A stretch of DNA of 64,000 nt from Trypanosoma brucei (lineage: Eukaryota). The notes under the pieces were generated by a model. It saw only the letters and a list, made by a program, of their open reading frames with translations, did no database searches and was not told the DNA's origin. The stretch spans positions 1 through 64,000 of the forward strand of contig CH464492.1 in assembly GCA_000002445.1 (NCBI GenBank), written 5' to 3'. The translations under genes and the position numbers were made by a program. Each line of letters opens with the position of its first letter. Positions within the stretch are counted from its first letter, which is position 1. This document shows positions 6,127 through 52,185 of the stretch, in pieces.

Positions 6127-7650
6127 TTGTCAATGGCCTCAACTGTAGCGGCTACGCCCATACTATTGTTTCTATTGGTGGCCACCACAGCAGCAACAGA
6201 CACGGCAGACACCATAAACGCCTTGGCCACAGACTTTTGCAGACTCGATATCTACTATGACGCTATTCAAACCGAACTTGCAGGCTGGATAACGGCAGCC
6301 AGCTCGACAGCGGTAGCCCTGGAAAAAGAGGCGCGGCAGATGCAACTGGCAGCAGAAATCTACAGGGGCTTCAACAAGGGTGCCGCTTATTATGTTTTAG
6401 CAGTCGTATCCAGCCAAAGCGCTGACAGCGCCGCTAAAACAGCGGAAGAAGCAGCCGCTAATATATTACCAGCGGTGCAGCTAATAACCGCAAGAAGAGC
6501 AGAAGCGGCGACTCTACAATTTTTTGAAGAAACAGCAGCGCTGAAGCCAGCAAAACATACTCCAGCAGCAACCGACCGGACAGCAGTACCGCAAACCGCG
6601 TCTAACACCAAGATCTGCACGGCAGAAGTGCAACCGGAATAAAAATTAGTGAAAGACTGCTCAAGCGCTGAAGGAGCCAAGGCAAGGATCACGAAGATAA
6701 GACAACACCTAGACAAACTGCATAAAATACAGACAGTAAAAACTACGGCGATGAAACCACCCAAAAATCAGATAACAGCAGAGGCCCAGGGGACATTCAA
6801 CAACGCCAATCAATGGGAACCAACAAAGGACAACAAAGCATGCGAACAACACACAAGCGGGGCCGGCACAGGCAGCGCAACAGCAGCAGACGCCACCAAC
6901 GCACTGGCAGTGGCGGCTGTGAAACTCGTCGGGGAGACAACACGATCAGCGCTAGACATAACAACCCAGGGAGCACAACCCAACAGCGAGACACAAGACG
7001 GGCAAGACAAAACAACCGACCGGCGGCTACTAACAGCCGACTCGGCGCTGGCCGCATCCCTGAAGACAGCGATAACAGCAAAGCCTACTCAATATAAGCG
7101 GCTTGCGGACTGGACGATCAGTGACGCGGCAAAAAGTGCCGCAGCCCAAGCGTTCTATAAATTCGCAAGAAAAGCACAAGCCAAAGAAACAGATTCACCA
7201 GTGACAGAAAAAATAGAGGAGGCAATGTTTGGGAAAAAAGACGTCAACATAAAAGATGAATTTATAGACCCTCTTACACGCGACACGCGGATAATTTCAA
7301 CTGAAAACGGAAAAATCGAAAGCAGCACAGAAAACTAAGTGAAAGCAACTTCGCACGGGCCATGGCTTATTATTATAGCGAAAACATAAAAAAGGCAGCG
7401 GTAACTGCAGGAGGCAACCCCAAAGCAGATGGTCAAGCAGCTGCAGGAGCAGACAAAACCGAAGAAAAGAAAGACGGGGACAATAAAGCCATAAAGTCAA
7501 ATTGTTCTAGTAATTCTACATCGGAAGCCTTTACCAAAATGCAGATTTGCAAACTGGAAAATAATGCTTGAAAATATTCCAGTTTTCTTGTAAATAAGAA
7601 ATTGGCTATGAGTATGGCTGCTGCTTTTGTGAGTTTGGTGGTATTCTTGC
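6127..7650 (+). pseudogene. VSG pseudogene (signal peptide present; in-frame TAA at 6640-6642; frameshifts before the GPI signal)
   Basis: MSMASTVAATPILLFLLVATTAATDTADTINA signal peptide. The coding sequence continues in the same frame after the stop (ORF 6649..7338), then shifts frame (7362..7571). A GPI-signal-like NKKLAMSMAAAFVSLVVF sits in a third frame at about 7590-7650. Confidence 0.75.
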
Positions 7651-7904
7651 ATTTTAAGGATTATTGCTCAATTTTATAAAACTTATAAAATTTAATATGT
7701 TGAGAGAAATTGTTGTTCTGACAGACATCTTTAAATTTGATATATTTAAACACTTTTTGATGAAAGAAAAAATATTGTAAAACTCCAAAATATAAAATTT
7801 TTTTGTTTAAAAGTGTTCTATTGATAAAAAGTAATAGGGTTATATGGAACGAAAAACGAGTGCTTCTCCAATTTGGTTTAATTATTTAATGGATATCGGT
7901 TAGG

Positions 7905-8005
7905 GTTATAATAATAATAGTGATATATCAAAATAGTGAAAATTATGATAATAATAATAACAGGAGTGTGTCGTGATTGTGTATATACGAATATTATAAG
8001 AAGAG
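7905..8005 (+). repeat. 70-bp repeat unit(s)
   Basis: GGTTAGGGTTATAATAATAATAGTGATATATC…GATAATAATAATAACAGGAGTGTGTCGTGATTGTGTATATACGAATATTATAAGAAG. Confidence 0.75.
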
Positions 8006-8918
8006 TGGTGGTAAGGGGTAAAATAGAGTGTAAAAATAGAAGTACTCAAGTTATGGGAGGGGTGCAATTAGTGAGTGAATCATTTAGTAAGTGAGAAAGC
8101 TAAAAATAACACAACGAATATTATTAAAAGATGTTTGAGGAAAGAAATGTAGATGAAGTGCGCACAGTCACACACACAAACATGACTATGTGTATTATTA
8201 TACTGTAGGAGATGATGAAGGGAACAATCATGGGAAAACATAGTTAAGTGTTGAAGTGAAATGGAGCCATTACATTGTTTGCAATGATAGAGGTAGCAAA
8301 AAAAATACTAAAGAGAAGGAAATAAAGTATGGAGTGAAACAACGGGATGATCAAAAGCCTACTGGAGAAGGAAGAGGTACAGGAAAAAACTGTGATTCAC
8401 ATTTTACAGAGAAAACTGATAAATGCTAATGTATTTCTCACAAATATAGATTAGAAGTGAATGCAGAGATGTTAGTAACCAAAAACAGTAACAGTAGTTA
8501 AAAAAGATACTGAGATAGACGTCTCGTGATTAAACCGAATGGTTGTGCAGTTATTGCAAAAAAATAGTAACATTCTTAGTAAAGCTGCGCACAGATAGTA
8601 CATCTTGATAATGCAATCCACATAACAATGAATATAGGGAAAATATGAAGAATACAAGGAGTATCAGAATACACACAGTAGAAGGCTAGAGATATACCCA
8701 AATCTTACTACTTAAAAAAATGTAGGTACGTACTCAAAGATAAGATACCAATATTGAGCATAAACAATTCAACAGATGTTCCATAAAAATCAAGGCATTA
8801 CATAAATATAAATACTAATTTCTTAACCAATAACATTATAAGGGAAAGTGACTTCCTTTCAAAAATTTCTGAGCTTTTCTTACAAATCTCTCAAAAAATT
8901 TAAAGGCATGTTAGGGAA

Positions 8919-9699
8919 ATGAAATTTTATATCTTGAGAACTTTACTATTACCGTTTTTATTTCTAAAAGTAGTGTGTTTACACTCAATAACTCTTCAAA
9001 AGGACCAAACTGTAAATAAACAAACAAATATAATAGAGAATAACACTAAGAATCCCAGAGTGTTTGTGGTTGTAGCTCAAACTCATACAACTCAAGTATG
9101 GTGTAAGCTGATATTGAGTTCCAAATTAAGCAAAGTTGATATTATCACAATTGCGATGGAAGGTTTGTACAGCCATGTTAAAAGACCTAGATGAGTTATG
9201 GAATTGTTGGAAAGACATAATGCAAGTGATTAGGATATTATGATAACTGTTGATGGGTCCGATGTTATCCTTAATGATGGAAATAAGTATGAAACTACTA
9301 AAGGTTATTTTATTCCAAATACTGCAGAAAGTGAAAAGAAGTTTAATGGAGATGATATAGTAAAGGAGAAAATAGAGAGATGTTACTAGTTTTTCAATGT
9401 CGTTCACAGGAAAGAAGAGAATAATAAACTTGTGTCATTTACTAAAACCACATCCTACTGAAAAACCTTACCTTGTCGGTGGAAATATAATAACCAGAGT
9501 TTGGGCGTTAAAGATATTTGAGTTTGAATTTAGAGAATCACTTGAAGGAAGTGAGAAATGGTGGTCAGAGCAGAGCATTTACAAACCGTTGTTAATATGG
9601 AGCGTTACACAGGAAGAAGCTGTTGAAAAAAGATTTGTTTTGAAGAGAGTAATGAGCGGATTGGATTATGAGGAGAGGCATTTCTATTCCAAATAATGA
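8919..9699 (+). pseudogene. Conserved VSG-array-associated ORF family with signal peptide, copy a (frameshifted); possibly ESAG3-like (identity unverified)
   Basis: MKFYILRTLLLPFLFLKVVCLHS… signal peptide. Shares …GLYSHVKRPRW…DGSD(V/I)I…KEE(D/N)(K/N)KL…(T/S)GKPYL(V/S)GG.I(I/A)RVWA(L/F)K…WSEQSIYKPLLIWS… with 20146-20625, 40700-41400(-) and 49000-49760. The coding sequence is split over three frames. Confidence 0.5.
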
Positions 9700-10324
9700 T
9701 GAGCTTGGTATAACCTAATTTATTCACTGTCTAGGGCATACAATTGTGTAGGAGGAAAGAGCTAAATTGATTGCTAAATATCTTACTTTGACGCGTGATT
9801 GAAAAGAAGAAATTTTTGTGGGAAAAATATAAAGTAATGTGAAACTTTTGCGATTAGTGAAGATGAATGGTATTTCGAATGTAGAGAGATTTGTGATGGT
9901 GCTTTAAAAAAGGGATATTTGTGTGAGGCTGAGAAAATGTAGCAATCCACAACAGAATAATTTCCCGATAGGCAAGTGGCCGTGACCAAAAGTGGAAACC
10001 CCGCCGAATAACACGGAGTTAGCCACCAGAAACCCCTCATATAAAACTAAAGAAGGCTATATAACGGAGTAGGACAGCGCGGCTTCGTCGCTAGAAACTA
10101 AAGCAAAGACCTCTCCAGCCAAGCGAAGAACTCATTAGCAGAGCAGCCGGGCTAAAACCGAGCGGAGCTGTAGGCATTGTGCAAACAACAAAATAAAAGC
10201 ACCCGGTAAAGTTAGTATGTAACAAATAATATGTTGTGACCAAAAGGAATCTTGAAAATGCAACCACGCGATGCTCCAAATATTCTAACTCACAAGAAGT
10301 AGAGTCGAAGAAGCCAAAAGACAA

Positions 10325-11866
10325 ATGCTCTCGGATACCGCCCCGGTTACAGCAGCTAGCGTCTTACTCGTCTTTGTTCTACAGCCCAAGGCAGAGGCGG
10401 CACCAGGGGAGGAGCTGGAAAATGCACCGGCTTTCTTCGCCCTCTGCAACGTCATACGCCAATGTCAGAGGGGTTTCACAGCACAAGCTGTAGAACTTGC
10501 GGAAGCAGCTGAAGCAGCATATAACAGCATACTGGCAGCGGAACATTTAGCAAGTACCAACAACAGCTATGTACTTGAAAAAATATTAGCCCAAGAAAAT
10601 GGCCTTAGAAAGGACCTCAAACCGTTGCCTGTGACGCCATTCGGCATAACGGCTCGGAAGCTGATAAACGATACAGCCGCAAAAGCCAAAGAAACTAAAA
10701 ATGCACTGGACGCAGCGGCGAAAGCAGCGAAGGACGAAGCGGCCGCAGCAAACAAATTGCTCGCAGCGGCAATAACAGGCGACGGCGAACTGAGGGACGA
10801 CCAAGACGACGGCAGTGGCTATTTTACGGCCGCAACAGCTAGTAAGATGTTCGGCACGGGGGCGAGCCAAAACGAAAATTGCGGCGGCAGCGGCGGTAAT
10901 GGCAATAACTTAGGTATCTCGATTATCAACGATCTGTTCTGTATTTGTGTGCGCGGCACTACAGGCAACAAAAAGGTCTGCCACGCAACCGCGACAGCCA
11001 AAGCAAGCGGCGCACACGACTTCACCAACAGCGGCAATAACAACAAAAACGCGTACGCAGCGTTGATGGCACAGTGCCCAAAGACGCTAAGGACGGTGAC
11101 GCCAGCATCGCTAGAAGCAGCCATCGCTGGATATAACAATCAGATAGGGACTCTGGTACACACCGTAAGTGGTAGCCACGAAGACGCCGGCTACATAGTA
11201 GGCTACGCCCACACAGGCAGCAAACGCTGCGAGGGAACCAACAGCCAAGTATGCATCAATTACAAAAAGCTGCTAGACAAAAAAGACGCAGCAGCAATAC
11301 CCTGGCAAGTAAAAATAGGTCAAGCAATAGAGAAACGACCCAGCAGCGCCGTCGTTCAAGAAATCAAGGCAGGGACCCAAACACTGGCCCATATGAACCT
11401 AACAGTCTGGCAGATCTACTACTCAGCACTCAGCCACACAGAAACCCAAGGCGACCACTCACCCAAATTACTGGATAGCAAAAAATTCGAAGAATGCAAG
11501 GAGCACAAACCAAAAAAGACGTGTAAAGAAAAGGGTTGCAAATGGGAAGAAAAAAATGAAACAGATGGAACATGCAAACCTAAAGCAGCAACAGAAAACA
11601 CAGCGGGAGCAGGAGAAGGAGCTGCAGGAGAACAAAAGAAAGAGGAGAAATGCAAAGGGAAATTGGAACCCGAATGCACCAAGGCTCCTGAATGCAAATG
11701 GGAAGGAAGAGCGTGCAAAGATTTCAGCCTTTATTTAATTAAACAATTTGCATTAATTTCCTCTGTTTTTATAAGTTTGTTAGGGGTTTTAGCATTTTTA
11801 AGAATTTTTCCTCAAATATATGAAATTTACGAACTCATGAAGATTTGGTATTTTGATACAATTTGA
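10325..11866 (+). CDS. VSG: Variant surface glycoprotein (a-type N-domain), 513 aa; ORF reads through the normal GPI-signal stop (atypical C-terminal extension)
   Basis: [25 protein letters not shown] signal peptide; N-domain cysteines; C-terminal …[43 protein letters not shown]… then about 30 extra residues; 70-bp repeat upstream and AT-rich 3' flank. Confidence 0.8.
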
Positions 11867-12094
11867 TAAATTTTCAAACAATTTTATATATTCTAACACT
11901 TTAATTTTCATCTTTTTACTAATTTACAAAATATAATCAAAGAGACTTAGTAAAATTATAAAATACAAGCTTTAGTAAAATGTGCATGATAGTAGCGTAT
12001 AAATGAAAAGTAGTACAGAGATAGTGTACAAAAATTAGTGAAATTCCAATTTTGTCTACTTGATTTATTTTATGGATATTAGAAGAAATTTATG

Positions 12095-12165
12095 GTTTTA
12101 ATAATAATGATGGTAGGAGAGTGTTTTGAATGTGTATATACTAATGTTGTAATGTAAAAACGATG
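12095..12165 (+). repeat. 70-bp repeat remnant
   Basis: TAATAATAATGATGGTAGGAGAGTGTTTTGAATGTGTATATACTAATGTTGTAATG. Confidence 0.6.
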
Positions 12166-13105
12166 AAAAAACGTATGCACATCCAAAAGGTGACCACTTA
12201 CAGAACCAACAGGGTGACTGATTATGAAAGGAAGAGAAAGAAGAATAATATAAAATAAAACGCAAAAAGAGAGAGGGAGAAAGAGATGAAATATGCACAG
12301 TGTCAAAGAAAAATGTGATGATGAGAAGCATACACAAGAAGAGCGAGAAAAAAATAACGGAAGGACAGAATCTGGTGTAAAAAAAAAATGTGGTTTCCAT
12401 TCTTTAGCAGAAGGAGAGACAGGAAACGAATAAGAAAGATACGGAAACTGCTGAACGTGGAGCATGTACGAATCTACGGAACTACTTTGTATGAAGTAAA
12501 AAGGAATTAAAGTAGTACACAACCACTACCAAATTGGTGTAAATGAAAGCTTCTAACACTATAAAAATAACGGGCAATCCACTAAAATTTTGTATCCAAC
12601 GAGAATTTAATAGCACGCATTAAAAATAAAATGCGGAGAGTAATACATTTTTCGGCCACACATCATAGAGTTTGTATGCATTTGACGCAAAAGTATACAG
12701 AATACGAAACAAAAGCTAAAGAAGAAAACATACCTATGACAAGCAGCAGTGCTACATCGTTATCTCACAAGCACGTAATTGATAATTACCCGACAGATAA
12801 AAGCAATTACAAAACATAAATAGTTTATTTTATAGTATAAAAACATATTCGGTATCTTAAAATGTTTAAGTATTGGACTTATATAAGAGAATAGAAGCAA
12901 TATATATGGAAATATACCAAGCTAACGTGGATTTTAAAGTGAAAAAACAGCTAAAAATTTTTTTTCGAGGCGGCACATGAAGAAATTCCATCTACACCAA
13001 CTCTAATTCACCCCATAGGAAGTGACGAATTTTGCATATTTGTGTTTGTATGCACCTTTTCTTCCAAGTGAGTACGAGTAACAAGAAAGTAGGCTGGTTT
13101 TAGGA

Positions 13106-14680: not shown

Positions 14681-14939
14681 TATAACTATTTTTCTATATT
14701 TTATGGAATTTATGAGATTTTTTATTTTGAAAGAATTTGGTAAATTACTAAAATTTACGAAATTTGATACATTTTAAAACTTTTTGATAAAAATATGAAA
14801 GTCAATGTATATTAATGATAATATAAATTTTTTATGAAAGTGTACTATGGGTATACAGAATTATGGTGACATTTTATGGAAATTTAGTGGTATTATAAAA
14901 TAGTTTTTCTAGTTTATGTGCGTTAATTAGGGCTACAAT

Positions 14940-15615
14940 GATAATAATAATAATAATGATAGGAGAGGAGAGTGTTGTGAGTGTTTGTGTATACTAATAT
15001 TATAATAAGAGTATTAATAATAATAATAATAATAATGATAGGAGAGGAGAGTGTTGTGAGTGTGTGTATATACGAATATTATAATGAGAGTATTAATAAT
15101 AGTAATAATAATAATAATAGTAATAATAATAGTAATGATAGGAGAGTGTGTTGTGAGTGTGTGTATATACGAATATTTTAATAAGAGCAGTAATAATAAT
15201 AATAATAATAATGATAGTAATAATAATAGTAATGATAGGAGAGTGTGTTGTGAGTGTGTGTATATACGAATATTTTAATAAGAGCAGTAATAATAGTAAT
15301 AATAATAATAATGACAATAGAAAAGTGTTGTGAGTGTGTATATACGAATATTATAATTAGATCAGTAATAATGATAATAACAATAGGAGAGTGTGTTGTG
15401 AGTGTGTGTATATACGAATATTTTAATAAGAGCAGTAATAATAGTAATAATAATAATGATAGTAATAATAATAGTAATGATAGGAGAGTGTGTTGTGAGT
15501 GTGTGTATATACGAATATTTTAATAAGAGCAGTAATAATAGTAATAATAATAATAATGACAATAGAAAAGTGTTGTGAGTGTGTATATACGAATATTATA
15601 ATAAGAGTATTAATA

Positions 15616-15678
<63 letters not shown>

Positions 15679-15900
15679 GGAGAGTGTTGTGAGTGTGTGT
15701 ATATACAAATATTATTATAAGAGCAGTAATAATAATAATAATAATAGGAGAGTGTTGTGAGTGTTTGTGTATACTAATATTATAATAAGAGTATTAATAA
15801 TAATGATGATAATAATAATGATAATAGGAGAGTGTTGTGAGAGTGTGTATACTAATACTCTAATAAAAGTGATGAACATAAAATAGGGAAGCAATACAGA
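14940..15900 (+). repeat. Long 70-bp repeat array (about 12-13 imperfect units, about 1 kb) including a pure (TAA)n run at about 15625-15690
   Basis: Tandem units of (TAA/TGA)n + GGAGAGTGTGTTGTGAGTGTGTGTATATACGAATATT(T/A)TAATAAGAG. The six-frame ORFs here (14981-15921) are repeat artefacts. Confidence 0.9.
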
Positions 15901-16537
15901 AGCGTTTATAATAATGGCCATGGTGCTATGTGAGTATGTGACTTAGTGAAACAGAAAAGCGAAGTGGTATATGTGTGGCCTCAAACGCAAAATTAACGAA
16001 TGGCACCATTGTTCACGAGAAGACATTAAACTGAACATGAGTGGGAAAGAGAATGCGGTGTGCAATCAAATGTCTTTGCTACGTCATTCGCAGAGACACT
16101 GTCATAAAATTAAAAAATGAGGAAAGAAAATGTGGAACGTAACAATATAATACTGTTGAATATGCGGCAGTACACATGAAACAAATACATCAGTACCCAA
16201 TGATGCAGCATATATCATCTAAACGTGGAGATGTGCTACTGCATAGATAATGGTCACCTCAATTTAGATAACCATAATAATTGAACATGCATGATTACCA
16301 GAGGCTGTGAGAAGTTCTGGAAAAGCATAGAAGATTGATATTTACCGTAGTAAAATGTATATAAATATATCAATAGAGATAGTATAATGACTTGTAATAT
16401 AGGACGCAATTAGAGGAGTCGAACGGCAAGTAACAGGATCCACAATTCCCCACAGACACGGTGATGGACAAAGCGAGCCCAAAAAGAAACCCCCCTTTAA
16501 CTCTTTTTACAGAAGTAAGGTCTTAGCCACAAGCTGC

Positions 16538-18091
16538 ATGCAAGCCATTCAAGACTCAACAATTAAGATGTGCAAACAACTGATGCTCTTGCTGATCTTG
16601 TGTTCGATTCCGCCATCGGGAGCCAACGTCGGAGAAGCGGATAATTTAGCTGTTTTCGCAGCGGTTTGTGAGTTGTTCCAGATCGCTGAGGGGGAACTTC
16701 CTCCGGACGAACAGGTGACAGATTCAGCAAACGCCGTCCGCCAGCTCGAAGCACTCAACATGTCCGTAGCAGAGGACAAGTGGCGCCAGCAGTTCTACAA
16801 AGGCAACTACGAAAAGATATCCTGGCAGGAAGCCAAAGATGCAGGCCTTTCGCCACACGAAAGCTGGAAAACGAAATGGGAACGATGGCAGCAGGCGGCA
16901 CTCAGCACCAAACCGGAAGCCGAGCCCGGAAAAACCATAGCAGACCAAGGCTTCAATGAGTTAACGGGAATTTCCAAAAAAGCAGTCCAAGCAAAAGTAG
17001 CAGCGCTGCTGGCCAAAGTCGGACACCTGGAAGCCGAACGCGCCACAGCAGAACAAGAAATAATAAGCGCGAGCAACGCAGAGTTGAGCAAAAAACTAAA
17101 CAAAGCGTTATACGGAGTCGAAACTGGGAGAGGCGACTTCGGTAAAACAGCTGGAGCAACGGGGGCAGCGAAAACACTGGATGCGTGTAGCACGGCTGGA
17201 ACCATCGACAACCAACAACCACTAGCATATGTTATGATGTGCCTTTGTCTAGAAACAGGGTCGACCAAAACCGGCAAGATCTGTGCAAAAGACCACGCAC
17301 TAACCAAGGCATGGAACGATGCAAACCCAAAAGTCAAGCAAGCATTCGACGACATGCGCAACTTGTGCCCGAGCGGGAAAAAGACGCCAATAACAGCATA
17401 CCAGATACGGAAAGCACTCTCAGCAGTACAGGCCTTCATACGAATGCACAGCGGCACCGGCTATCTAGGAGGGTTCAACAGCGGGAGCTGCAACGGGAAT
17501 GTCGCTAACGGCATATGCGTAAAATACGACCACAAAATAACAGCCGGCGCAAACGGTTTCACAGAACTAACGTACGCCGCCAACATGCTGGAAGCGGCTA
17601 GTCTGCTAGAAAACAGGCAACACGCGGTTCAAAAAGCCAACCAACTGGCACACGCGATCAACGCAGAAGCTTCAGCAGCGTGGCTAATATCGAAAGAAGT
17701 GGAAGCACTGCAGAAACTGGAAAGGGCAGCGGCAGCACAGGTGCCAACCACCAGCCAGGCACCAGGGACAAGCAAGCAACCATCGGTGGAGGAACAAAAT
17801 AAATGCAAAAATGCTACCAATAAAACAGCGGAAGGATGCTCGGCTATCAACTGCGACTTCGACAACGAAAAAAAGGAATGCAAACCTAAAGATGGGGAAG
17901 GACAGACAAGCACAGCAACAGGAGAGCAAGCTACAGGAGCAGATGCCAAAAAGTGCTCCGATAAGAAAAAACAAGAAGACTGTAAAGATGGCTGCAAATG
18001 GGATGGAAAAGAATGCAAAGATTCTTCTATTCTAGCAAACAAACAATTCGCCCTAATGCTTTCTGCTGAATTTGTGGCCTTGCTGTTTTAA
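16538..18091 (+). CDS. VSG: Variant surface glycoprotein, intact (b-type N-domain), canonical GPI signal
   Basis: Signal peptide MCKQLMLLLILCSIPPSGANVG (the true start is probably the Met at 16568). Contains …YLGGFNSGSCNGNVANGICVKYD…. C-terminus …CKDGCKWDGKECKDSSILANKQFALMLSAEFVALLF*. Perfect 16-mer in the 3'UTR. Confidence 0.88.
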   Translation: MQAIQDSTIKMCKQLMLLLILCSIPPSGANVGEADNLAVFAAVCELFQIAEGELPPDEQVTDSANAVRQLEALNMSVAEDKWRQQFYKGNYEKISWQEAKDAGLSPHESWKTKWERWQQAALSTKPEAEPGKTIADQGFNELTGISKKAVQAKVAALLAKVGHLEAERATAEQEIISASNAELSKKLNKALYGVETGRGDFGKTAGATGAAKTLDACSTAGTIDNQQPLAYVMMCLCLETGSTKTGKICAKDHALTKAWNDANPKVKQAFDDMRNLCPSGKKTPITAYQIRKALSAVQAFIRMHSGTGYLGGFNSGSCNGNVANGICVKYDHKITAGANGFTELTYAANMLEAASLLENRQHAVQKANQLAHAINAEASAAWLISKEVEALQKLERAAAAQVPTTSQAPGTSKQPSVEEQNKCKNATNKTAEGCSAINCDFDNEKKECKPKDGEGQTSTATGEQATGADAKKCSDKKKQEDCKDGCKWDGKECKDSSILANKQFALMLSAEFVALLF

Positions 18092-18147
18092 AATTTCCCC
18101 CTCTTTTTAAAAGATTTTTTGCTAAATTTTTGCTACTGGAAAACTTC

Positions 18148-18163
18148 TGATATATTTTAACAC
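18148..18163 (+). promoter_or_regulatory. Conserved VSG 3'UTR 16-mer (mRNA stability element)
   Basis: Exact TGATATATTTTAACAC about 55 nt downstream of the VSG stop codon. Confidence 0.8.
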
Positions 18164-18289
18164 CTAAATTCGGCTGAGTTTTTTTCGTTGGTTGTAAAAA
18201 ATCTGATTCTGTAAATTTTTTTTGTTTTCTGGCACCTAAAAGAATTTCTCTCTTTTTTTTCCTGTTTTTTTTTGAGTTTTTTTTTGTGA

Positions 18290-18345
18290 AGGGAGGTAGG
18301 GGGTTAGGGTTAGTGTTATGGTTAGCGTTAGGGTTAGGGTTTTAA
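18290..18345 (+). repeat. Interstitial telomere-like hexamer tract (degenerate TTAGGG x about 7)
   Basis: GGTAGGGGGTTAGGGTTAGTGTTATGGTTAGCGTTAGGGTTAGGGTT, about 200 bp downstream of the VSG stop. Confidence 0.85.
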
Positions 18346-18789
18346 TTTACCTTTTTTGGCTTTTTTATAATTTGCCATTTTTTTCTTTGCGATGCAGCGG
18401 CTTTTTTTTATATTATGGTTGGCGCTTATTCAGAGAGTAGGCAACTTCGTCTTCATATTTTTCACCTATTTATTTTATTTCCACATTGTTACAATACCAC
18501 TTTTTAATCTTTTGTGAATTTCCGGTTTGCATTTCGGGTTGCGCCCGGCTTAAATAAATATATATATATATGTTTTTAACGCTGGCGCGTGGCAGTGTAG
18601 CTGCGCGAAACGAATTGCTTTTGAAGCATAAATAATCTAAAAAGAGAGTTATTCTAAACTAGGAGATTATTACGATCAGCAGTTAAGGAACGACTTCCAG
18701 ATCTGCCCCTGCCAGCAGACGTCTAAAGCCGCTCAACTGTCATGGCCGCATTTTCAATCCCAAATGAAACGAGAATAAAAAGTGCACAC

Positions 18790-19001
18790 TTAGTGAGGAT
18801 GGCAAAAAACAAGTAGAAAAAGAAGCAGCAAAAGAAGGAGGGAAAGATTAGAAGAAAGATAAGTGTACCAGACATGGCACTAATCTACAAGCTTTTGAAA
18901 AGGACAGCAACTGTAAATGGGAAGATAACAAGTGCAAGAATTCCAGTTTTCTTGTCAATAAAAAATTTGCTGTGATGGCTGCTGCTTTTGTGGATTTGTA
19001 A
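18790..19001 (+). pseudogene. VSG C-terminal fragment only (C-domain plus GPI signal)
   Basis: …[49 protein letters not shown]. No N-domain lies upstream. Confidence 0.7.
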
Positions 19002-19224
19002 AATTTTAGGTATTTTTTTTATAAATATGTTGTTTTCTAAGAAAATTACTTTTGTAATAATTTGCTAATATTTTCTAAACGTTGATGTATTTCAACACTT
19101 TATGATTGATATGTGCGACTTTTAGTAACATGTGTATGAACGTGGCATATTGGTGCAAAGTAGTAGGATAATAGTGTGTGAAAAATGTGTGCTATTCTAA
19201 TTTAGTTTAGTTTAGTTTTTAAAA

Positions 19225-19320
19225 TAATAGGTAGGGTTATAACGGTAGTGATAATAATAATGATGATATCGATATGATTGTATTGCGAGTCCGAATATAC
19301 TAATATTATATTAAGAGTTA
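19225..19320 (+). repeat. 70-bp repeat unit(s)
   Basis: GGTAGGGTTATAACGGTAGTGATAATAATAATGATGATATCGATATGATTGTATTGCGAGTCCGAATATACTAATATTATATTAAGAG. Confidence 0.7.
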
Positions 19321-20145
19321 TGGTGAAAACCGAATGAAAAGAAAAAAAGGAGCATATAAAAACAATGATAAGACTGCAATGGAAATAGGTGAATGAGTGA
19401 GAGGGAGGGTAAGAGACTAAGACAAATAGTGGCTGAATACATACAGTTGCGGCATAAACGCTGTGATGTGTATTATCACAGATGTGATAGTAATGGAGAG
19501 GACAGTAAGGAAGGCACAGAGTTCAATGTATAGCTCAGATAAGCTTGCTCTCTTATCCGCAGAAGCAGCAATAGAGGATGAAAAAGAAGAAATGGAAATG
19601 CGGAATGCGGAATGAAACATCTTGGAGCAGAACAGAACTCTAGAGAAAAATTAGAAAGAGATTGTGCAGCACCTTATACACATAAGTGGATAGATGCCAT
19701 CGCGTAGATAATGGTTGCACAAGAGAATTTGTAGGTAATAAAGCTATGATGATGAGAGTCTTGTGTTAAAAGCGGATGCCGGGATAGTTAGCAAAGGCAA
19801 CTGGTAAGACTCCTAGCGAATCAGTACAATTAGCTACTGTAGTTCCCATAACTACGATGAATGGAAAAATGTGAATAATTAAAGTAACAGTGTCATGCAT
19901 GTCGTGCGCAGAACCAACTACGGATAGAAACTAACTTTAAAAACAAAACCCAGGAATCTTTGCTCAAAGATAAGCTACAGATTGTGAGGATACGCCCTTT
20001 AAAAATTAGATCAAAACCATTTTAATGCATTATTTACATATGTAAACGTGGTTTCCTTAACTATTCACTTTAGAGGTGCAAGTGATTTCTTTTCTTAAAT
20101 TTCAATGTGATAATCTTACGAACTTTTAAAATTTTATGATAGTTT

Positions 20146-20625
20146 ATGGAATAAAATTCTATATCTTGAGAACTTTAATTTTACCGTTGATATTACATTT
20201 AGTTTGCTAAAGTTCAATAGCGCTTCAGTATAATGAAATAAAAAACAAAACAAATATAATAGAGAATAACACTAAGAATCCCAGAGTGTTTGTGGTTGTA
20301 GCTCAAACTCATACAACTCAAGTATGGTGTAGGCTCATATTGAGTTCCAAATTAAGCAAAGTTGATATTATCACAATTGCGATGGAAGGTTTGTACAGCC
20401 ATTTTAAAAGACCTAGATGAGTTATGGAATTGTTGGAAAGACATAATGCAAGTGATTAGGATATTATGATAACTGTTGATGGGTCCGATGTTATCCTTAA
20501 TGATGGAAATAAGTATGAAACTACTAAAGATTATTTTATTCCAAATACTGCAGAAAGTGAAAAGAAGTTTAATGGAGATGATATAGTAAAGGAGAAAATA
20601 GAGAGATGTTATTTATGACAACATC
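20146..20625 (+). pseudogene. Conserved array-associated ORF family, copy b (3'-truncated; near-identical to copy a over about 470 bp)
   Basis: The sequence from 20270-20615 is almost base-for-base identical to 9045-9390. Homology ends abruptly at about 20625. Confidence 0.55.
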
Positions 20626-21084
20626 GGAGTGTTAGGCACCTCATTTGGATTTTATTATGAATTTAGATCACAAAGAGCATGTGGAGAGACGTTATCGGTT
20701 TTTTTAATGTTGATCACGGAAAAGAAAAGGACAGGAATTCAATACCCGACATCACTGCCTTGGAAAAGTGACACCTCAGGGCTAGCAGAGAGAAACTGAA
20801 GACACACAGGTTGGAAATGACCGGTGAATGGCAACCAACTAAAGAAGATTTGCCACTAAACCGATAGAGCAGGTGAAGTCGCCAATTCCGCATTGGGACA
20901 TCGAATACATATGGATGGTTGCTGCGGAGGATAAAAAAAACAGTTCCTAACAGGTGCAGATGGTGTGAAACCCATCTCTGCGCACACTGCGGGAAAATAA
21001 ATTCCGATAGAGCTCACGTAGTGTTTCATACGAACTAAATTCACAGTGTACCCTACCATGAGGCATTGCGCCGGTTGAAACATG

Positions 21085-22825
21085 CTGCACACCCTGGTGA
21101 TGCTGGCTCCATCAAGGTGGTGTCAGAGTCCAGTACCCCGTCTCATCGGGGGAAGCCAAGAGCCAGCAGCGTTCTTCTCATGGGGAACAATGCTTTGCTT
21201 CGGCTACAGCGTCATACAGCACAGGGATCAGAAGCGTCTTTCTGGGACACCGTCTTTTATTTATCGGTCCCTGGGCACGTGGCTAGCGTGCCATCAGCAG
21301 TATCACCCGCGCATGCTGCAGAACTTGGGGTGGTGCCTGAAATTTCACCCTATAACCCCTGCCCCCTCCACCGAAGTCGTATGTGCTCATTGTCTGTAAC
21401 AAATCCTATGGAAACAAAGGAGGGCTCACATGGCACAAAACTCGATGCCTTCACGGCAAAACGAGAAAGTTAGACGATGAAATGTCGGAGAAGCGGAAAG
21501 AAGATGAAAATATCAAACAGCACAAATGGGTTTGCGCAGAACGTGGCTTTCAATCCAAGAGTGCAGGTGTACTAACATTGCGCAGGCCACAGAAACACTA
21601 CATGACCAACGACAGTCCCTTTCCACCCCACACTGGCGGAACCATAATCCACACTGAATATGATTAAAAAAACACACTCCAGTGAGGAATCTGTGGGTTC
21701 AAATTGATTTAGCAGAGAGGCTCGACAATACGTCATGGAATAAAGAGCAGAAGTCAGCTTTAGCACATCATTCCAGTGGTGGAGAAACGGCTAGGCACAC
21801 AAAGTGAAAACCGACCGCATCAACCCAACACCAATGAACAAAGTGATAACACCACCAGTTCAACCTCTGGAGAAAATGAAGCGATATATGGACCTCGCGG
21901 CTACATATTTCGCACAAAAAATGGACTAGTGATAAGTCACGGGATGAAATACTGCGAAGTGCAACCGCAAACGGGGTCGCGAGGAATAAAGAGGCAACGG
22001 GAACTCGAAGAGAATGCAAGTATTCCAACGAAGGGCTCCCGAGCGACGGAAACGAGAGGGCATCCACTGAACGACACAGTAGGCACATCTGAGCCGCTAC
22101 AATGCAGGCAATGCATCTTTGTATCACAATCAAAAGGGGGAACAACACCAAACACCAAGATTCAGCACCGCAGAGGCCATTCCCTGGAGAGTAACGCTGG
22201 TACAAAACGGAGCTGTTCCATCACAGAACAAGAGGTATCCCTCATTTGGAACACGGTAACTATAGGTCTAAATGATACCTGTTGCACGCAATGCCGTCAT
22301 ACGCATGTATCAAAAGACAGCCTGATGGAGCACTTCGGGGGAATGCATAGACAGCATCCCTTCTCCGTAGCAAAAGAATCTCCACCACCGCTCCGGAGCT
22401 TCAACGTCAGAGAGTTTCATCTACACTTCACGTTCGTAAACCGAAATAAGACGTCCCACTCAACATCAGGTTCATCTATACATCGCCATCAAAAACATGA
22501 AATCTGCGTTGAAAGGAAACATACACACTCCAACGAATGCGAAGGGAATCCCACCCACATACTCGTGCGCTCAAGCCTAAAGTGCTCCGCAGTTACTTCG
22601 GGCTTGAGGGCGAAAATATGCAGAAGACAGTGTTCACCAAGAACCTTGCACAATTCCTCCAAGAAATTGAGAAACCCCTCATTCTCTTCCAACATGTACT
22701 TTCTTCATTCGAGAGGAACACCCCTATAAAGGAGAATAGACTACACAAAAAGCTGCCCACTCCTCTGAATGAAAATGTAAACTCCACTATGCTCTTCTAC
22801 GTTTGGGTCAAAAAAAAAAAAAGAG
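21085..22825 (+). mobile_element. Degenerate ingi-related retroposon (DIRE/RIME-like), plus strand, ending in an A-run
   Basis: 21085-21370 aligns with divergence to the RIME/ingi 5' region (CCCTGGTGATGCTGGCTCCATCAAGGTGGTGTCAGAGTCCAGTACCCCGTCTCATCGGGGGAAGCCAAGAGCCAGCAGCGTTC…). Downstream ORFs carry Cys/His-rich zinc-finger-like motifs (CNKSYGNKGGLTWHKTRCLHG, CTQCRHTHVSKDSLMEHFGGMH). A(13) run at about 22810. Confidence 0.45.
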
Positions 22826-24764
22826 GCAGAAGCCTTTCACTCTCAAGTAAACTGTTTTCGCCATCGCCAAGAGCTGCTTATTAAATATTTGGCAGTTTCC
22901 AGCGGCCCCGTACAACTAGCTAGGACATAACATACAATAATCCTTCGGGAATCAAATATGGCACGCTCTGACTTCGATAGTAACAAACTGATGGCAGTCC
23001 ACCTACAGAGAACGATGCTAAAAAAAGGCTACTTTGACTCGAATAAAATACACAGACACTTGTGGGGAACAAGATGCCTTTTTATATTGTCTTGGAATGG
23101 AAGGTGTATCGCTCTTATGGGAGGGTGGGTTTCCTATTTCAGTTTTTTTTCAGGGGCCCCGCGTGCTCCCAATAGCCATCTGTTTGAAAAGTCCTAAAAT
23201 TTTTTCTACAGTTGGAATAAGTTTTGTATTACCGTGGAGCTAAGAATAGACCAAGGGAAGGGAAATTACGCCTCGTTGATTGTAAATTTGCAGTGCTGTT
23301 TAAATCCTCTTTTATAAAGCTCCGGTTTTTTGCCCAACGAAGTAAACCTAAAGAGCTATTACTGCACCTATGTGTTGAAATGATTCTACGACTAGGGTAT
23401 ATTCAAACGGCAATGCAACATTCTACAGATTTATTATGACGAACCTCACGCGGTAGTTATCAAATCAGTGAGCTGAACAAAAAGAGCCGCTACGCCCAGC
23501 AAGATTTAAATCTTGTAAAAGGCATGTAACATTGGCGCCCTACCAAAAAACATTGGAAGCGTGTTATTGAAAGTTTTGCTGGTGCAACGGATTGCGAAGA
23601 GATACCGATTGATAGTGAATACAACGTTCGTTTTGTCTCCGTAAATGATGCGTAGAGTATAAATGATAATTTTCGAGGGATATGCCACAGTGCCACACAA
23701 CTTGTGCCAAAAGACCACCTTGATTGCCAACACAACCGCTACGATGCCCTTAAATGCAGCAACCTGAAACACGTTGCTACGAATGTGTGGGTGACGCCCC
23801 GCACTTCCCCAATGTATCTAACTGCGTCGCGTCGCACACAATCTAGTGGAGAATGTCACACTAGTTTCCACGGATTCCCCGTTATTCCAGTATTTGTCAC
23901 CGTTCCCACATATACTTAGCAACTTTACCTCTGAGGTGTTGTTCCACGATAGAGGTTAAAATAATTAAAAACCTTTCAACGAAAGCTAACAGTAAGAGGC
24001 AAACGCCCATTACGCACATATGCACATGCGTGTGCATACTTCCATCTTTACTCTAAAATACCTCCACTTCATGAAAGAGAGAACGGACATCCCTCCCCTA
24101 AAAAGGATATTGCTTCACTCAACGCACTAGGCGTTACATCCAGGGTTATGATCCCCTCATTCAGAAGGCACTCCAAGCTTTCTTCACACACCACACCCAC
24201 TTTTCTCTACCCTTCGGTACAGCCACTTTACTAACGCACAGTTTTCACCGTATTTTAACAATGTCACTGAAAGGCGGCGGTTTTGCAATGAGTGTCTTCT
24301 TAATACTCCAAGAACGAACGCCGAAAATGTGAACAAAGGTGTTAACCGTATGTCTGCCGCCTTCGTCATTGCAGGGTCCCACAGGCGAATCACATCTACG
24401 CCATAACCACAGAAGAAATATCGAGACGCAACAACTGAGAAGCCACTATCCCCACAAATGCTTCAGTTTCATACCCTACAGATTCGTAAAGTTCCTACAA
24501 CTACAAACTGAAAAGCTCTGAAATAAGCAACCGGAAAGAACTTTGCTTCGCACACGCAAACTGTACATACAAGCATTTGAAACATAATAACATTGCCACT
24601 GTCTGATGATTAGTTTTTTTTCACGGAAACACAACATGTCAATGAAAAAAGAAAATCATTAAGCACGTGGGCGCGCGCAAACTCGCAAAAAAGCATGTAT
24701 GCAAAAACATCGGTGAAAAGGAGGAAATGTATATAAACGTATTTGTCAGATGTTAGAATCAGTA

Positions 24765-25343
24765 TTATCCACATCGGTTGTAAGATTGGTACCGAGTAGC
24801 AGCGAGGTGAAGTTGCCATGGATTCCGTTGAAGTGGGAGTAGAGAGAAGTGATATTTGACATCATCCCACACAGTTCTTTCGATCTCAGCAATGGCCGTA
24901 TAATATTTACTTGCCTTTATGAGGGCATCAGGTATTTCTTTTCTCACTGCCCTCACACTTTCATTAACCTCAGAAAATAATCCACCTACCTTAGCTACAA
25001 GGTCTCCCAATATATTTCCATAAGATATAAGCTTTTCTAGTTTATCATGTTTCCCCTCCATTACACCACTAATAACACTCAAATATCTAACACTTTCACC
25101 TGCTTTTCCTTCCATATCATCCAGCATACGAGATGCATTTGCGTATACTTCCTCATTCACAAGCATTCTCTGCTCTCCACCAGTGTATAAGCTGTTTAAT
25201 GCATCCGAAAGACAACGGAGATAACACACGGACTCATGTAAATTTTTGCCTTCATAATCATCCACCAACGTACATCTCTCCTCTCCGTTAATACAAATTG
25301 AAAAAAATATTAAGATAAAAAATTCCACAACAACAACGTTCAT
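24765..25343 (-). CDS. Hypothetical 192-aa protein with N-terminal hydrophobic signal/anchor; family not recognised
   Basis: Clean ORF MNVVVVEFFILIFFSICINGEERCTLVDDYEGKNLHESVCYLRC… in the non-VSG island. I recognise no homology. Confidence 0.35.
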   Translation of the reverse strand: MNVVVVEFFILIFFSICINGEERCTLVDDYEGKNLHESVCYLRCLSDALNSLYTGGEQRMLVNEEVYANASRMLDDMEGKAGESVRYLSVISGVMEGKHDKLEKLISYGNILGDLVAKVGGLFSEVNESVRAVRKEIPDALIKASKYYTAIAEIERTVWDDVKYHFSLLPLQRNPWQLHLAATRYQSYNRCG

Positions 25344-26995: not shown

Positions 26996-27771
26996 TTTTT
27001 TTTGAAATTTTCTTCGTGCCTTTGTAAGAGTTTCCCCCCACTGGCGCGGCCATCAGCCATCACCGTAGAGCCCTGAGATGCTATCGGTCTGGCGACTGTG
27101 GCAGAGTCTCCCTTTTTTGTTCAGCCTAACACACACTCTATAATTTTTTGTTGTAGCTCCGCAGATGAACGGAATACAGCAGATGGAGCAGAAAGCCCCC
27201 CACCCCTGACTCTCCAAAAGATGTCAATTAGCAATCCTTTTGTTTTGATTTTTGTTATTCGTTTATTATTCTCTCCCCCTCTTTCTGTTTTTGTTGCTTG
27301 TTGACTGCATACCCTCTCTGTCTCTGAGGGTGTCTGGACTATTCCTGCGTCCGGTGCTTTTCCTGCTAGCTCTACACTCTCGGCAATAAGGGGGGGAAGT
27401 TGCAGAATGGAGAGTGGGTTGTATGACTGTTACATTAGGTGAGGACTTCACCTGCGGCCGGCTCCGTTCAACCGCAATGAGAAACTGTGCCAGCCTTTTA
27501 GAGAAACATACATCCCGCACACACACACCTTCTACCGCAAACCTAACACGTAACTCCTTCAAACCGGGACAGCTCATCAAGTGCAGCGACGTTTCTTCGC
27601 AGTCGCCGCGTTGGCTGGTAACAGCGCACTCTACCTTCATACCGTGCATCTTCTTTTGATGTAGGGTGAGGCCAGTTTTGCTAGCACACTGCCTTCCGCA
27701 TGTCGGGCACACCAACATGGATGTGTTTGTATGCGGGGGAATCAGTGGGAAAACATTTTGTGCTTTTGCTG
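26996..27771 (-). mobile_element. ingi: ingi 3' end fragment (C2H2 zinc-finger region plus 3' RIME half plus poly(A)), cut off by an assembly gap
   Basis: TTTTTTTTTGAAATTTTCTTCGTGCC…CCACTGGCGCGGCCATCAGCCATCACCGTAGAGCCCTGAGATGCTATCGGTCTGGCGACTGTGGCAGAGTCTCCC is the reverse complement of the ingi 3' terminus. ORF 27266..27718(-) is MLVCPTCGRQCASKTGLTLHQKKMHG…. Nearly identical to 29641-30420 and 52665-53440. Confidence 0.85.
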
Positions 27772-27886
27772 NATTTAAGCTCGACTNNNNNNNNNNNNNN
27801 NNNNNNNNNNNNNNNNNNNNNNNNNNNNNNNNNNNNNNNNNNNNNNNNNNNNNNNNNNNNNNNNNNNNNNNNNNNNNNNNNNNNNN
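27772..27886. other. Assembly gap (N run)
   Basis: Run of n characters. Confidence 1.
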
Positions 27887-28602
27887 CAGACGCCCAACTT
27901 TTTAGCAGCAACGACCCGGCAGCAAGCTGCAGCGAAGCAACAGCGCCAGCCGGGACTGAACCACCAGGAAGCACAAAGCGGATAAAGCACACACTTTGCC
28001 AGGCGCTAAAAACATATAAAGCTTCCCTGGGAAGCACAGATGCGATTTCCGGCCAGGTACTTAAGCATAGCAACCTCGTGCTTAACTACCTAAGGAACTG
28101 CATCCCAAAGTACTCCAACATCAAAAAGCCTGAAGATGCAATAGAGGCGAAGGCTTTAATAGAATTTGTGGATAAAACATACGGCGAAAGCAACGAAAAG
28201 TTCAAAGAAATGTTCGTCACTCCACTCACAACAGCCAAGGCAGCAATTCGCTTGAATGAAAAAACAGAGCCGAAAGAAATCGCGAACATGGTGTCAGTGG
28301 AAGATAGAGCCGCAGCAATAAGCCACAATGAAGGTATGAGAAACGCCAAGGAACTTGAAGCCGACAAGAAGAATACAGTAGCCACTCCAGCAACAGATCT
28401 GGCCAAAAAATCAGAGGATTGCAAAGGCGAAAAAGACGAAACTAAATGCAACAATAAGGGTGGATGCGAATTCAAAGATGGGGAGTGCAAAATCAAAGTG
28501 ACAACAGCAACAGAGACAAATGGCAAGACTACAAACACCACAGGAAGCAATTCTTTTTTCATTAAAACTTCCCCTCTTTTGCTTGCATTTTTGATTCTAT
28601 AA
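27887..28602 (+). pseudogene. VSG 3' half (C-terminal domain plus canonical GPI signal) beginning at the gap edge
   Basis: …DCKGEKDETKCNNKGGCEFKDGECKIKVTTATETNGKTTNTTGSNSFFIKTSPLLLAFLIL*. The upstream part is missing or hidden in the gap. Confidence 0.7.
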
Positions 28603-30097: not shown

Positions 30098-31636
30098 TCA
30101 CCTGCGGCCGGCTCCGTTCAACCGCAATGAGAAACTGTGCCAGCCTTTTAGAGAAACATATATCCTGCACACACACACACCTTCTACCGCAAACCCGACA
30201 CGTAACTCCTTCAAACTGGGACAGCTCATCAAGTGCAGCGACGTTTCTTCGCAGTCGCCGCGTTGGCTGGTAACAGCACGCTCTACCTTCATACCGTGCA
30301 TCTTCTTTTGATGTAGGGTGAGGCCAGTTTTGCTAGCACACTGCCTTCCGCATGTCGGGCACACCAACATGGATGTGTTTGTATGCGGGGAATCAGTGGC
30401 ACACAATTTTGTGCTTTTGCTGCATTTAAGCTCGACTCCCTCACCTTTGTGGAAAGCCTTACAGTGTCGGATGAGGGAGTTCCTGCAACTGAGCACTTTT
30501 TGGCACACACCACACTGCACCTCGCCTTTCCCCGGGACGTCAACGTTTCCCTCACGGGTACACTTACGAGGGAATTGCACCACCACCACGGTACCGTCCT
30601 CCGTCACTATGCTCTTATGCTTGAATTTCTTGTGTAGTGACAGGGAAGAGCGTGTACCGAAGCTCGCCTCGCACAGGTCACATTTAAACGGCAGCTTCCG
30701 TGTATCCTGAGAGGCTGGCGCTGCTGGGACGCTACCATCTCCTTGCACTGAGTCCTCGTTCTCTCGCCTCCTTTTCACGCGGCAACTACCGCTACCTATG
30801 CCATGTATTGTTCTAAGGTGGTGTAATAGTCGGCCTGGCACTGCGAATTTGGAGGCACATAGTGTACAATGAAGCACCTGCGGTCTCATCGGGACTCGTG
30901 TGCTCGATGGTAAAGGAACGATCGCCACCACTGGAGGGGGCTCCGGGGGGATATCCACTGCAGGTGTTACATCGTCGTATTTGATCCTCCGGAGGGCATC
31001 AGCTCGCACAAAGCCGTTTTTGTTTACCATATGCGTTACAGCACTCGAGCGGCATTGGTATGTGGTATCACATTCCGTACATTTGGTCGGTTCGGAGGTT
31101 CTCTGAAGAGTGCGTGTCGCAACAGTTGGGGTTGTTTGTGTTTGTATTGTTGGCCCTATCGCTGCATGTTTCTGGTTACACCATCGGCACTGTGGAGACA
31201 CACTCGGGTTGATCTTTCGCAACATCCATCCATAGTATCTTGAAGACCCAACACGAAAGCGTGCCAGTGCCGTTTCTTCTTCCCTCGTTAGTTCTTCTTT
31301 ATGTTTTGTTGGAAAGTGGTTGCCAGTGATACCAAACCTATGAGTGTTCTCATGGACTTCTTCCGACCTAAGCACTCGCTTCGCATAAGCAATGATGTCG
31401 GGGATCCATGTGTCTCGCAAGTGTGGTAAACCAGCGGCCTTTTTGGTCATGTCATCGCAAACCTCATTCCGTTTCACGCCACAATGGACGAACACAAATT
31501 GCAGTCGGATAAGCACCTTCCTTCTCTGAACTTGAAGCAGAAGCCTCCATAGTCGTCTCAGAATTGGGTCCGTTACGGCTAGGGGGCCTGTCTGCAGTGC
31601 TTTTAACATTGACAGCGAGTCAGAGAAAATAGACAA
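30098..31636 (-). CDS. ingi ORF segment: RNase H-like domain plus five C2H2 zinc fingers
   Basis: …FVHCGVKRNEVCDDMTKKAA… (RNase H motif); CTECDTTYQCRSSAVTHM; HCTLCASKFAVPGRLLHHLRTIH; FKCDLCEASFGTRSSLSLHKKFKH; CGVCQKVLSCRNSLIRHCKAFH; CPTCGRQCASKTGLTLHQKKMH. Confidence 0.85.
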   Translation of the reverse strand: MSIFSDSLSMLKALQTGPLAVTDPILRRLWRLLLQVQRRKVLIRLQFVFVHCGVKRNEVCDDMTKKAAGLPHLRDTWIPDIIAYAKRVLRSEEVHENTHRFGITGNHFPTKHKEELTREEETALARFRVGSSRYYGWMLRKINPSVSPQCRWCNQKHAAIGPTIQTQTTPTVATRTLQRTSEPTKCTECDTTYQCRSSAVTHMVNKNGFVRADALRRIKYDDVTPAVDIPPEPPPVVAIVPLPSSTRVPMRPQVLHCTLCASKFAVPGRLLHHLRTIHGIGSGSCRVKRRRENEDSVQGDGSVPAAPASQDTRKLPFKCDLCEASFGTRSSLSLHKKFKHKSIVTEDGTVVVVQFPRKCTREGNVDVPGKGEVQCGVCQKVLSCRNSLIRHCKAFHKGEGVELKCSKSTKLCATDSPHTNTSMLVCPTCGRQCASKTGLTLHQKKMHGMKVERAVTSQRGDCEETSLHLMSCPSLKELRVGFAVEGVCVCRIYVSLKGWHSFSLRLNGAGRR

Positions 31637-41400: not shown

Positions 41401-41984
41401 AACAGCCACAAACGCTCTGTGATTCTTAGGTTGATTCTCTGTCACATTTGTTTTGTTATTTGCTTCATCTTGATGTGATATTGCACTTAAACACACTAAA
41501 TGTTATAGCAACATTAAGAGTAAAGTTCGCAAGACGCCGAATTTTACCTCCTAGGAAACTTTCAAAATTTGAAAAATATGTAATAAAAAAATAAATGGCT
41601 TAGGAAAAGGAGATATAACCACAAGGAGAATTTTAATTTTGAACAAGTTTCCAATTCTGATAAGAAAATATACTTCTCTGTTTCTAAATCTAAAATTTCA
41701 ACATTTATGGTCTGTAGTGGGCTCTTTTTTTTTTACTAACGTCACTACCCCATTTGACCTGTACACTAATATTATTATCTCCATTGCTGTTCTTTAAATA
41801 ATTTACATGAGGTAACAAGAGTGGCCATATTCACATTCTTTCTGAAATGCGCATGTCCCGTACCTTTTTCTTTCTCTCCCTGTCCGCTTACTTACTGTCT
41901 TTTTGCCTTGGCAATGGTATATCTGCTACTATTGCTACAGTCCATTTACTTTTAAACACTGTTTTTATTATAATTTTAGCATGC

Positions 41985-52094: not shown

Positions 52095-52185
52095 TTTTCT
52101 CTTAGCAATAAGTGTTTTTACCAGCACTTAACCGTAACGACTTTAGCTCTTTTTTTTAATCATGCGAGTCGCTCTTTTTTAATGC

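Follow-up and report, generated by a model that had tools for sequence, protein, structure and literature searches.

Why do the silent variant surface glycoprotein (VSG) cassettes of Trypanosoma brucei contain, between their 70-bp repeat and the VSG itself, a second open reading frame (ORF) that is not a VSG? The question is raised by positions 1 to 64,000 of contig CH464492.1 (assembly GCA_000002445.1), a 64-kb stretch referred to here as the window. It is a subtelomeric VSG array with about 15 VSG genes and fragments, 12 70-bp-repeat loci, three ingi retroelements and a fragment of ESAG1. A preliminary description of this DNA drew attention to a recurring cassette, in which a 70-bp repeat is followed by an ORF with a signal peptide and then by a VSG, and suspected that the four copies of this ORF are ESAG3-like pseudogenes. 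Here, we focus on the identity, decay and position of these copies (a, b, c and d). The suspicion is borne out: the only strong match is to the ESAG3 proteins of expression sites, and every copy is disabled.

Identity of the ORF family

ESAG3 is expression site-associated gene 3, and corresponds to Fam53 of the cell-surface phylome. Further copies of the ORF were first detected by blastn of positions 7905-10400 against the window, which matched copy b at 19963-20611 (84% identity), copy c at 41534-40685 on the reverse strand (74%) and copy d at 48977-49747 (74%), with E from 1e-141 to 0. A tblastn search with ESAG3 as query recovers the copies with E from 1e-56 to 1e-113. The four homologous copies are thereby confirmed, far beyond chance, as one ORF family, although with extents that differ from those first proposed.

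A database search with the reconstructed protein had been set beforehand as the test of identity. In a search of 5.8 billion proteins, reconstructed copy d matches a single cluster (E=2.5e-132, 61% identity, 100% coverage). This cluster, formed at 90% identity, comprises 15 ESAG3 proteins, which come from TREU927, T. b. gambiense and the Lister 427 expression sites. Searching exhaustively with the cluster protein in HMMER gave 46 relatives; those of full length are about 30% identical, and are the genes called 'ESAG3-like' in chromosome cores of T. brucei and in T. vivax and T. conorhini. The window copies share 47-64% amino acid identity with expression-site ESAG3 but only 25-34% with the ESAG3-like (GRESAG3) proteins P0017, P0018, P0019 and P0022. 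This difference places them, on sequence grounds, in ESAG3 sensu stricto, as pseudogenes of the T. brucei Fam53 expansion. Their location agrees: the surrounding array is subtelomeric and holds, besides VSGs, 70-bp repeats, ingi elements and a fragment of ESAG1. That they form an unnamed family, the fallback of the preliminary description, is excluded. A Pfam scan of two reconstructed copies returned no family at E<=1, Pfam being without an ESAG3 model; no homologue was retrieved with the 158-aa ORF of copy d, and a profile search with alignment A1 gave no further proteins.

Homology to expression-site ESAG3 extends over the whole 368 aa and takes in the signal peptide, the metal-binding motif DGSD, the GG loop and the WWSEQ block, but no window copy can encode the enzyme. 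The GRESAG3 or ESAG3-like core genes (XP_823173 and XP_823172, and those of T. vivax and T. conorhini) belong to the same family, have a predicted glycosyltransferase A (GT-A) fold and share with it the conserved DxxD motif, the GG loop and His297. Unlike the relics in the window, they are intact, keep aa 150-178 and have no association with cassettes.

Extent and decay of the four copies

The extents of the copies were set by tblastn with a full-length ESAG3 homologue of 368 aa (P0001). Copy a covers ESAG3 aa 1-368 without aa 150-178, at 47-48% amino acid identity (blastx), and has nine in-frame stops, one frameshift near 9430-9449 and the substitutions H297Y and G216N. Copy c has a GTG start, six stops, three frameshifts, a 29-aa deletion, D110N and H297Y. 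The least decayed is copy d (63-64% amino acid identity to ESAG3), which has four stops, one frameshift, the 29-aa deletion and H297Y. Because copies a, c and d reach residue 368 with 29 internal residues missing, the reconstructed product is about 339 aa long and not, as first estimated, about 270. Copy b starts with ATA, has several stops and keeps the aa 154-178 segment. It ends at about aa 196, where it is truncated by an ingi/DIRE-like element that begins at 20741; a tblastn tail running to 20782 is spurious. Frameshifts, which the preliminary description had assigned to all copies, are listed for a, c and d.

Traces of the original gene persist. The hydrophobic N-terminus can still be recognized in translations of the window copies, and the five conserved blocks originally quoted are all present in three-frame translations. 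The start context held to be common to the family is an exact 36-nt match in copies a and d, but not in b and c, where the start codon is replaced by ATA and GTG, respectively.

The significance of these lesions depends on the intact enzyme. ESAG3 is described in a 2026 preprint as an Mn2+-dependent UDP-glucose:VSG O-glucosyltransferase, with a GT-A fold that resembles human LH3/PLOD3 in the electron cryo-microscopy structure and with catalytic residues D110/D113, G215-G216, W242, E244/Q245 and H297 (bioRxiv 10.64898/2026.01.27.701950). An AlphaFold2 model of ESAG3 built from a 19-sequence alignment (mean predicted local distance difference test score, pLDDT, 83) likewise predicts a Rossmann-like GT-A fold with a DxxD metal-binding motif. 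The top Foldseek matches of this model in the PDB are the glucosyltransferase domains of LH3 (E=4.7e-10, probability 1.00). Human LH3/PLOD3, whose GT-A domain is thus the best structural match, shows weak sequence matches over the DxxD region (Pfam GT_PLOD, E=0.005; PDB LH3, E=0.029) but only about 15% identity, and the likeness concerns the intact enzyme, not the relics. In the family alignment D110, G111 and D113 are nearly invariant.

Against this standard, the catalytic set is incomplete in all tested relics, owing to H297Y in a, c and d, D110N in c and G216N in a. Copy b is without all residues beyond about aa 196. All four copies are disabled by stops and/or frameshifts, in addition to catalytic-site changes or truncation. 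The window copies are therefore ESAG3 members through descent rather than function.

Lesions in common

Two of the lesions are common to copies a, c and d: an 87-bp deletion, which removes aa 150-178, and H297Y. Every full-length homologue in the alignment, whether from T. brucei, T. vivax, T. conorhini or others, keeps H297 as well as the deleted segment (P0016, a fragment, is without part of the segment), and both changes are therefore derived. In the AlphaFold2 model, a core beta-strand (154-159) falls within the deletion. A relic in T. b. equiperdum has the same deletion and the same H297Y. Copies a, c and d and the T. b. equiperdum copy thus appear to belong to a sub-lineage that was already dead before it spread.

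Substitutions give no clear sign of constraint by codon position. Differences between copies are nearly flat across codon positions (d3/d2 about 1.3-1.5); for c and d, d1/d2/d3 is 0.24/0.23/0.31, although a protein-guided alignment lowers d1 and d2.

These data bear on the idea that the copies are working ESAG3 or GRESAG3 genes, whose lesions are artefacts of a draft assembly. Runs of N at about 27760-27890 and 43320-43420 are assembly gaps inside VSG pseudogenes and appear as X in ORFs 27700-28602, 43193-43684 and 43313-43852; the window sequence is therefore unfinished. Moreover, a 158-aa open stretch of copy d retains DGSD, GG, W242 and E244/Q245. Many of the lesions, however, are substitutions that create stop codons, rather than indels alone, and three window copies have the in-frame 87-bp deletion and H297Y in common with a separate assembly, that of T. 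b. equiperdum. A retroelement cuts copy b short, and substitutions are near-equal at the three codon positions. The reading of these copies as working genes is already contradicted by the present data, and we attach next to no credence to it.

Position within the VSG cassettes

Each of the four copies lies downstream of a 70-bp repeat on the same strand (table 1), at distances from repeat to ESAG3 start of 907, 826, 410 and 823 bp for a, b, c and d. Under random placement, all four would fall within 1 kb 3′ of a same-strand repeat with p of about 5e-5 (about 5 in 100,000 trials). The converse does not hold, as only four of the window's 12 70-bp loci have a relic. A VSG_B ORF follows copies a, c and d after 385, 195 and 266 bp, respectively, with E from 2e-30 to 3e-61. 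The original placement of these three copies between a 70-bp repeat and a VSG is upheld, as is the description of copy b as truncated, with a repeat upstream and no VSG downstream; the ingi-like element at about 20741 has taken that place.

Table 1. Coordinates of the ESAG3 copies and of associated cassette features in the window.
Feature	Position	Strand	Basis
ESAG3 pseudogene copy a	8919-9939	+	tblastn + blastx
ESAG3 pseudogene copy b	20151-~20740	+	tblastn
ESAG3 pseudogene copy c	41547-40531	-	tblastn
ESAG3 pseudogene copy d	49000-50015	+	tblastn + blastx
70-bp repeat, one degenerate unit, opening cassette a	7925-8012	+	blastn to 14937-15874 array, alignment A2
Degenerate 70-bp repeat 5′ of copy b	19245-19325	+	sequence, blastn to consensus (19252-19317), alignment A2
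70-bp repeats 5′ of copy c	41958-42120	-	blastn, alignment A2
Two 70-bp repeat units 5′ of copy d	48028-48177	+	alignment A2
Spacer, 70-bp repeat to ESAG3 copy a	8013-8918	+	low-stringency blastn
VSG of cassette a, B-type N-terminal and C-terminal domains	10325-11866	+	VSG_B E=2.1e-30, Trypan_glycop_C E=1.6e-20
VSG 3′ of copy c, B-type	39103-40335	-	VSG_B E=1.2e-41
VSG 3′ of copy d, B-type	50282-51883	+	VSG_B E=2.8e-61, Trypan_glycop_C E=6.2e-28
Tract in copy a 98-100% identical to copy b (20246-20611)	9023-9385	+	MAFFT pairwise, sliding identity
Degenerate ingi/DIRE-like piece truncating copy b	20741-21276	+	ingi match 20742-21276

How much of the cassette is common to the copies can be judged by comparing its parts. 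The upstream spacers of a, b and d are weakly colinear (57-60% identity over 500-870 bp, E 1e-11 to 1e-23), and the ESAG3 bodies are 73-77% identical between cassettes. On these alignments, demonstrable common ancestry extends from the 70-bp repeat through the upstream spacer to the ESAG3 relic. Co-duplication with entire VSG cassettes, as first envisaged, is borne out for these three parts only; the downstream spacers and VSGs give no sign of a particular kinship.

The VSGs themselves vary in state. The ORF in cassette a extends about 25 aa past the usual end of the hydrophobic glycosylphosphatidylinositol signal, and this VSG is probably atypical or defective despite its long ORF. The ORF downstream of copy c has 410 aa, with no C-terminal domain inside it. 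A tie between relic cassettes and B-type VSGs was considered, given that the VSGs of a, c, d and the T. b. equiperdum locus are all B-type. No fewer than five VSGs of the window that have no relic are B-type as well, which makes the association uninformative.

Relics in other subspecies and in expression sites

Six loci were compared in all: the four in the window and two more, one in T. b. gambiense DAL972 (L001) and one in T. b. equiperdum (L002), both found via ORF fragments from the HMMER search. A lookup of P0031 yielded only a 980-bp contig, and exact lookups of P0001, P0007, the VSG at 16538-18091 and the 158-aa ORF of copy d gave no record. In T. b. gambiense, an undeleted ESAG3 relic (9501-10552) comes after 70-bp repeats at 8477-8640 and before VSG fragments; the T. 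b. equiperdum locus has a 70-bp repeat at 7408-7483, then the relic (9989-10784) and then a B-type VSG (11123-12530). These relics are 72-78% identical to the window copies, and are therefore their paralogues rather than orthologues.

Related layouts have been published. Hertz-Fowler et al. recorded in 2008 an 'ESAG3 pseudogene 3′ of 70-bp repeat' in expression site BES7 of Lister 427 and two in BES15; the 5′ copy of ESAG3 in most expression sites is a conserved pseudogene (PMC2567434). Abbas et al. reported in 2018 that ESAG3 occurs throughout subtelomeric loci as well as in expression sites, and that most of these copies are pseudogenes (PMC6152948). The presence of ESAG3 pseudogenes in silent VSG cassettes is thus a known and ordinary feature of T. 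brucei subtelomeres. Among the papers searched, none mentions ESAG3 together with 'co-transposed region'. BES7 and BES15 have a 70-bp repeat, an ESAG3 pseudogene and a VSG in that order, as in the window, but they are telomeric expression sites, whereas the cassettes described here are silent members of an array. Working copies of ESAG3 are located upstream of the 70-bp repeats, whereas the window relics are downstream of them (PMC2567434).

The resemblance to BES7 could be taken literally, in that the relics might mark old telomeric ends (70-bp repeats, ESAG3 pseudogene, VSG, telomere) that have since become internal. The layout of BES7 and BES15 agrees with this account (PMC2567434), as do a GTTAGGGTTAGGGTTA motif at 52075-52092 with an inverted copy at 52185-52201 after cassette d, and a VSG at 16538-18091 that has about 11 units of 70-bp repeat before it and degenerate (GGGTTA)n at 18301-18341. 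Single TTAGGG-like units, however, also precede many 70-bp repeats that have no relic, and short telomere-like tracts may therefore be a generic part of the cassette boundary. No telomere tract follows the VSG in cassettes a and c. Furthermore, the common deletion and H297Y indicate that one dead ancestor was multiplied, wherever it was located. We regard an origin of the relics as former telomeric ends as unlikely, if deserving of some weight.

A probable conversion patch between copies a and b

Copies a and b had been described as nearly identical over about 470 bp. Near-identity (98-100%) is confined to about 362 bp with sharp edges, and does not extend beyond them: the overall alignment has 84% identity over 662 columns, with identity falling to 64-76% on the 5′ side of the tract and no homology on the 3′ side. 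The 3′ edge coincides with the deletion junction of copy a. Copy b has the junction-specific bases of copy a (AATAGAGAGATGTTA), then the segment that a lacks, and further 3′ its own version of the post-deletion sequence. From this arrangement we infer a gene-conversion patch, in which an a-like donor was copied, in the a-to-b direction, into an older, undeleted copy with irregular resolution at the 3′ end.

VSG pseudogenes act as donors for mosaic VSGs, and by analogy the ESAG3 relics might be kept or used as recombination substrates, either as 5′ homology in VSG switching or as a donor pool that diversifies active ESAG3. The a-b patch indicates that segmental conversion among ESAG3 copies occurs, the ESAG3 bodies are more alike than their flanks, and Hertz-Fowler et al. 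observed that the breakpoints of recombination within expression sites fall at ESAG3 loci (PMC2567434). On the other hand, at 47-64% protein identity to expression-site ESAG3 the relics are a poor substrate for homologous recombination, they are present at only a third of the 70-bp loci (four out of 12) and constraint by codon position is not clear. Such a use is in our view improbable. Equally doubtful is the broader form of the idea, in which the dead sub-lineage that has spread in several T. brucei subspecies, and still exchanges sequence by segmental conversion, is retained as 5′ homology or as an archive of O-glucosyltransferase donor sequence. Beyond the conversion tract, nothing in the analysis favours either the recombination-homology or the donor-archive role.

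Probable passive carriage with the cassette

Intact ESAG3 is located in bloodstream VSG expression sites, and the 70-bp repeat is the 5′ limit of duplicative VSG transposition. We consider it very probable that the copies in the window are non-functional ESAG3 relics that are carried passively in the co-transposed stretch of silent VSG cassettes. A dead ESAG3 copy would have lodged in the co-transposed region, between a 70-bp repeat and a VSG ORF, and would have multiplied and diverged along with the upstream module of the cassette. The relics have no enzymatic role, and conversion would continue to patch them. Copying of such a VSG into an expression site, with the 70-bp repeat as the starting point, would carry the relic along, and this co-copying would account for the ESAG3 pseudogenes that BES7 and BES15 have 3′ of their 70-bp repeats.

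Several observations weigh against passive carriage in this simple form. Low-stringency blastn detects no similarity among cassettes in the spacers between ESAG3 and VSG. The VSGs of a, c and d are not close paralogues, their similarity to one another (44-56 bits over the N-terminal part) being no greater than that to other B-type VSGs in the window. With no particular kinship among the downstream spacers and VSGs, co-duplication of the whole cassette is undemonstrated; the VSG part may have been swapped, or conversion may give the ESAG3 bodies too young an appearance. Better conservation of the bodies than of the spacers is not expected from neutral hitch-hiking alone, and the excess (73-77% against 57-60%) means that conversion or past constraint must be invoked. 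The 87-bp deletion lies between the VKEK and HKEH codons, which are imperfect direct repeats and in undeleted copies are spaced by exactly 87 bp; it could therefore in principle have arisen more than once. The sample, moreover, consists of six loci only.

For annotation, the ORF fragments in the window are to be recorded as ESAG3 pseudogenes and not as a new family. A catalogue of such relics would provide a cheap set of markers, based on lesions and conversion tracts, for tracing duplication and recombination of the upstream modules of cassettes. It would also reveal whether relic sequence ever enters the ESAG3 of expression sites, a secondary value that the relics have because ESAG3 is newly assigned as the VSG O-glucosyltransferase.

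Further observations on the window

Telomere-like sequence occurs at several places in the window. In at least five cassettes, the 70-bp repeat has a single GTTAGGGTTA-like unit (0-1 mismatch) directly on its 5′ side, at 2110, 5255, 7899, 19230 and 38581 (reverse strand); that of cassette a, at 7899-7908, is telomere-like. The window has 17 GTTAGGGTTA-like matches where 3.2 are expected, and the unit may be part of a generic cassette boundary. The GTTAGGGTTAGGGTTA motif and the inverted CAACCCTAACCCTTA downstream of cassette d, about 95 bp apart, are head-to-head relics of telomere repeats that precede an ingi element.

The B-type VSG at 16538-18091 is intact and has an unusually long array of 70-bp repeats at 14937-15874. 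About 210 bp past its stop codon are some seven degenerate telomere repeats (GGGTTA), and the whole of 14937-18341 looks like a telomeric VSG end turned internal. A 3′ flank like that of this VSG is present in T. b. equiperdum (L002, 14975-15327, 72% identity). The telomere-repeat relic is separated from a fragment of a VSG C-terminal region at 18789-19016 by a stretch that contains GCTGGCGCGTGGCAGTGTAGCTGCGCGAAACGAATTGC (18578-18615), which we take to resemble the conserved 5′ signature of ingi/RIME-type retroposons.

From the element that truncates copy b onward, positions 20741-25282 are homologous throughout to T. b. gambiense (L001, 14887-19573), and 20741-21097 has a 96.6% match to a T. 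b. gambiense repeat. A 192-aa ORF at 24765-25343 on the reverse strand matches the N-terminal part only of Pfam ESAG1 (E=5e-40), and is another ESAG relic. The three ingi retroelements are at 7-1101, 30101-34907 and 53114-57956, all on the reverse strand; two of them share about 95% identity with one another and with a copy in T. b. equiperdum.

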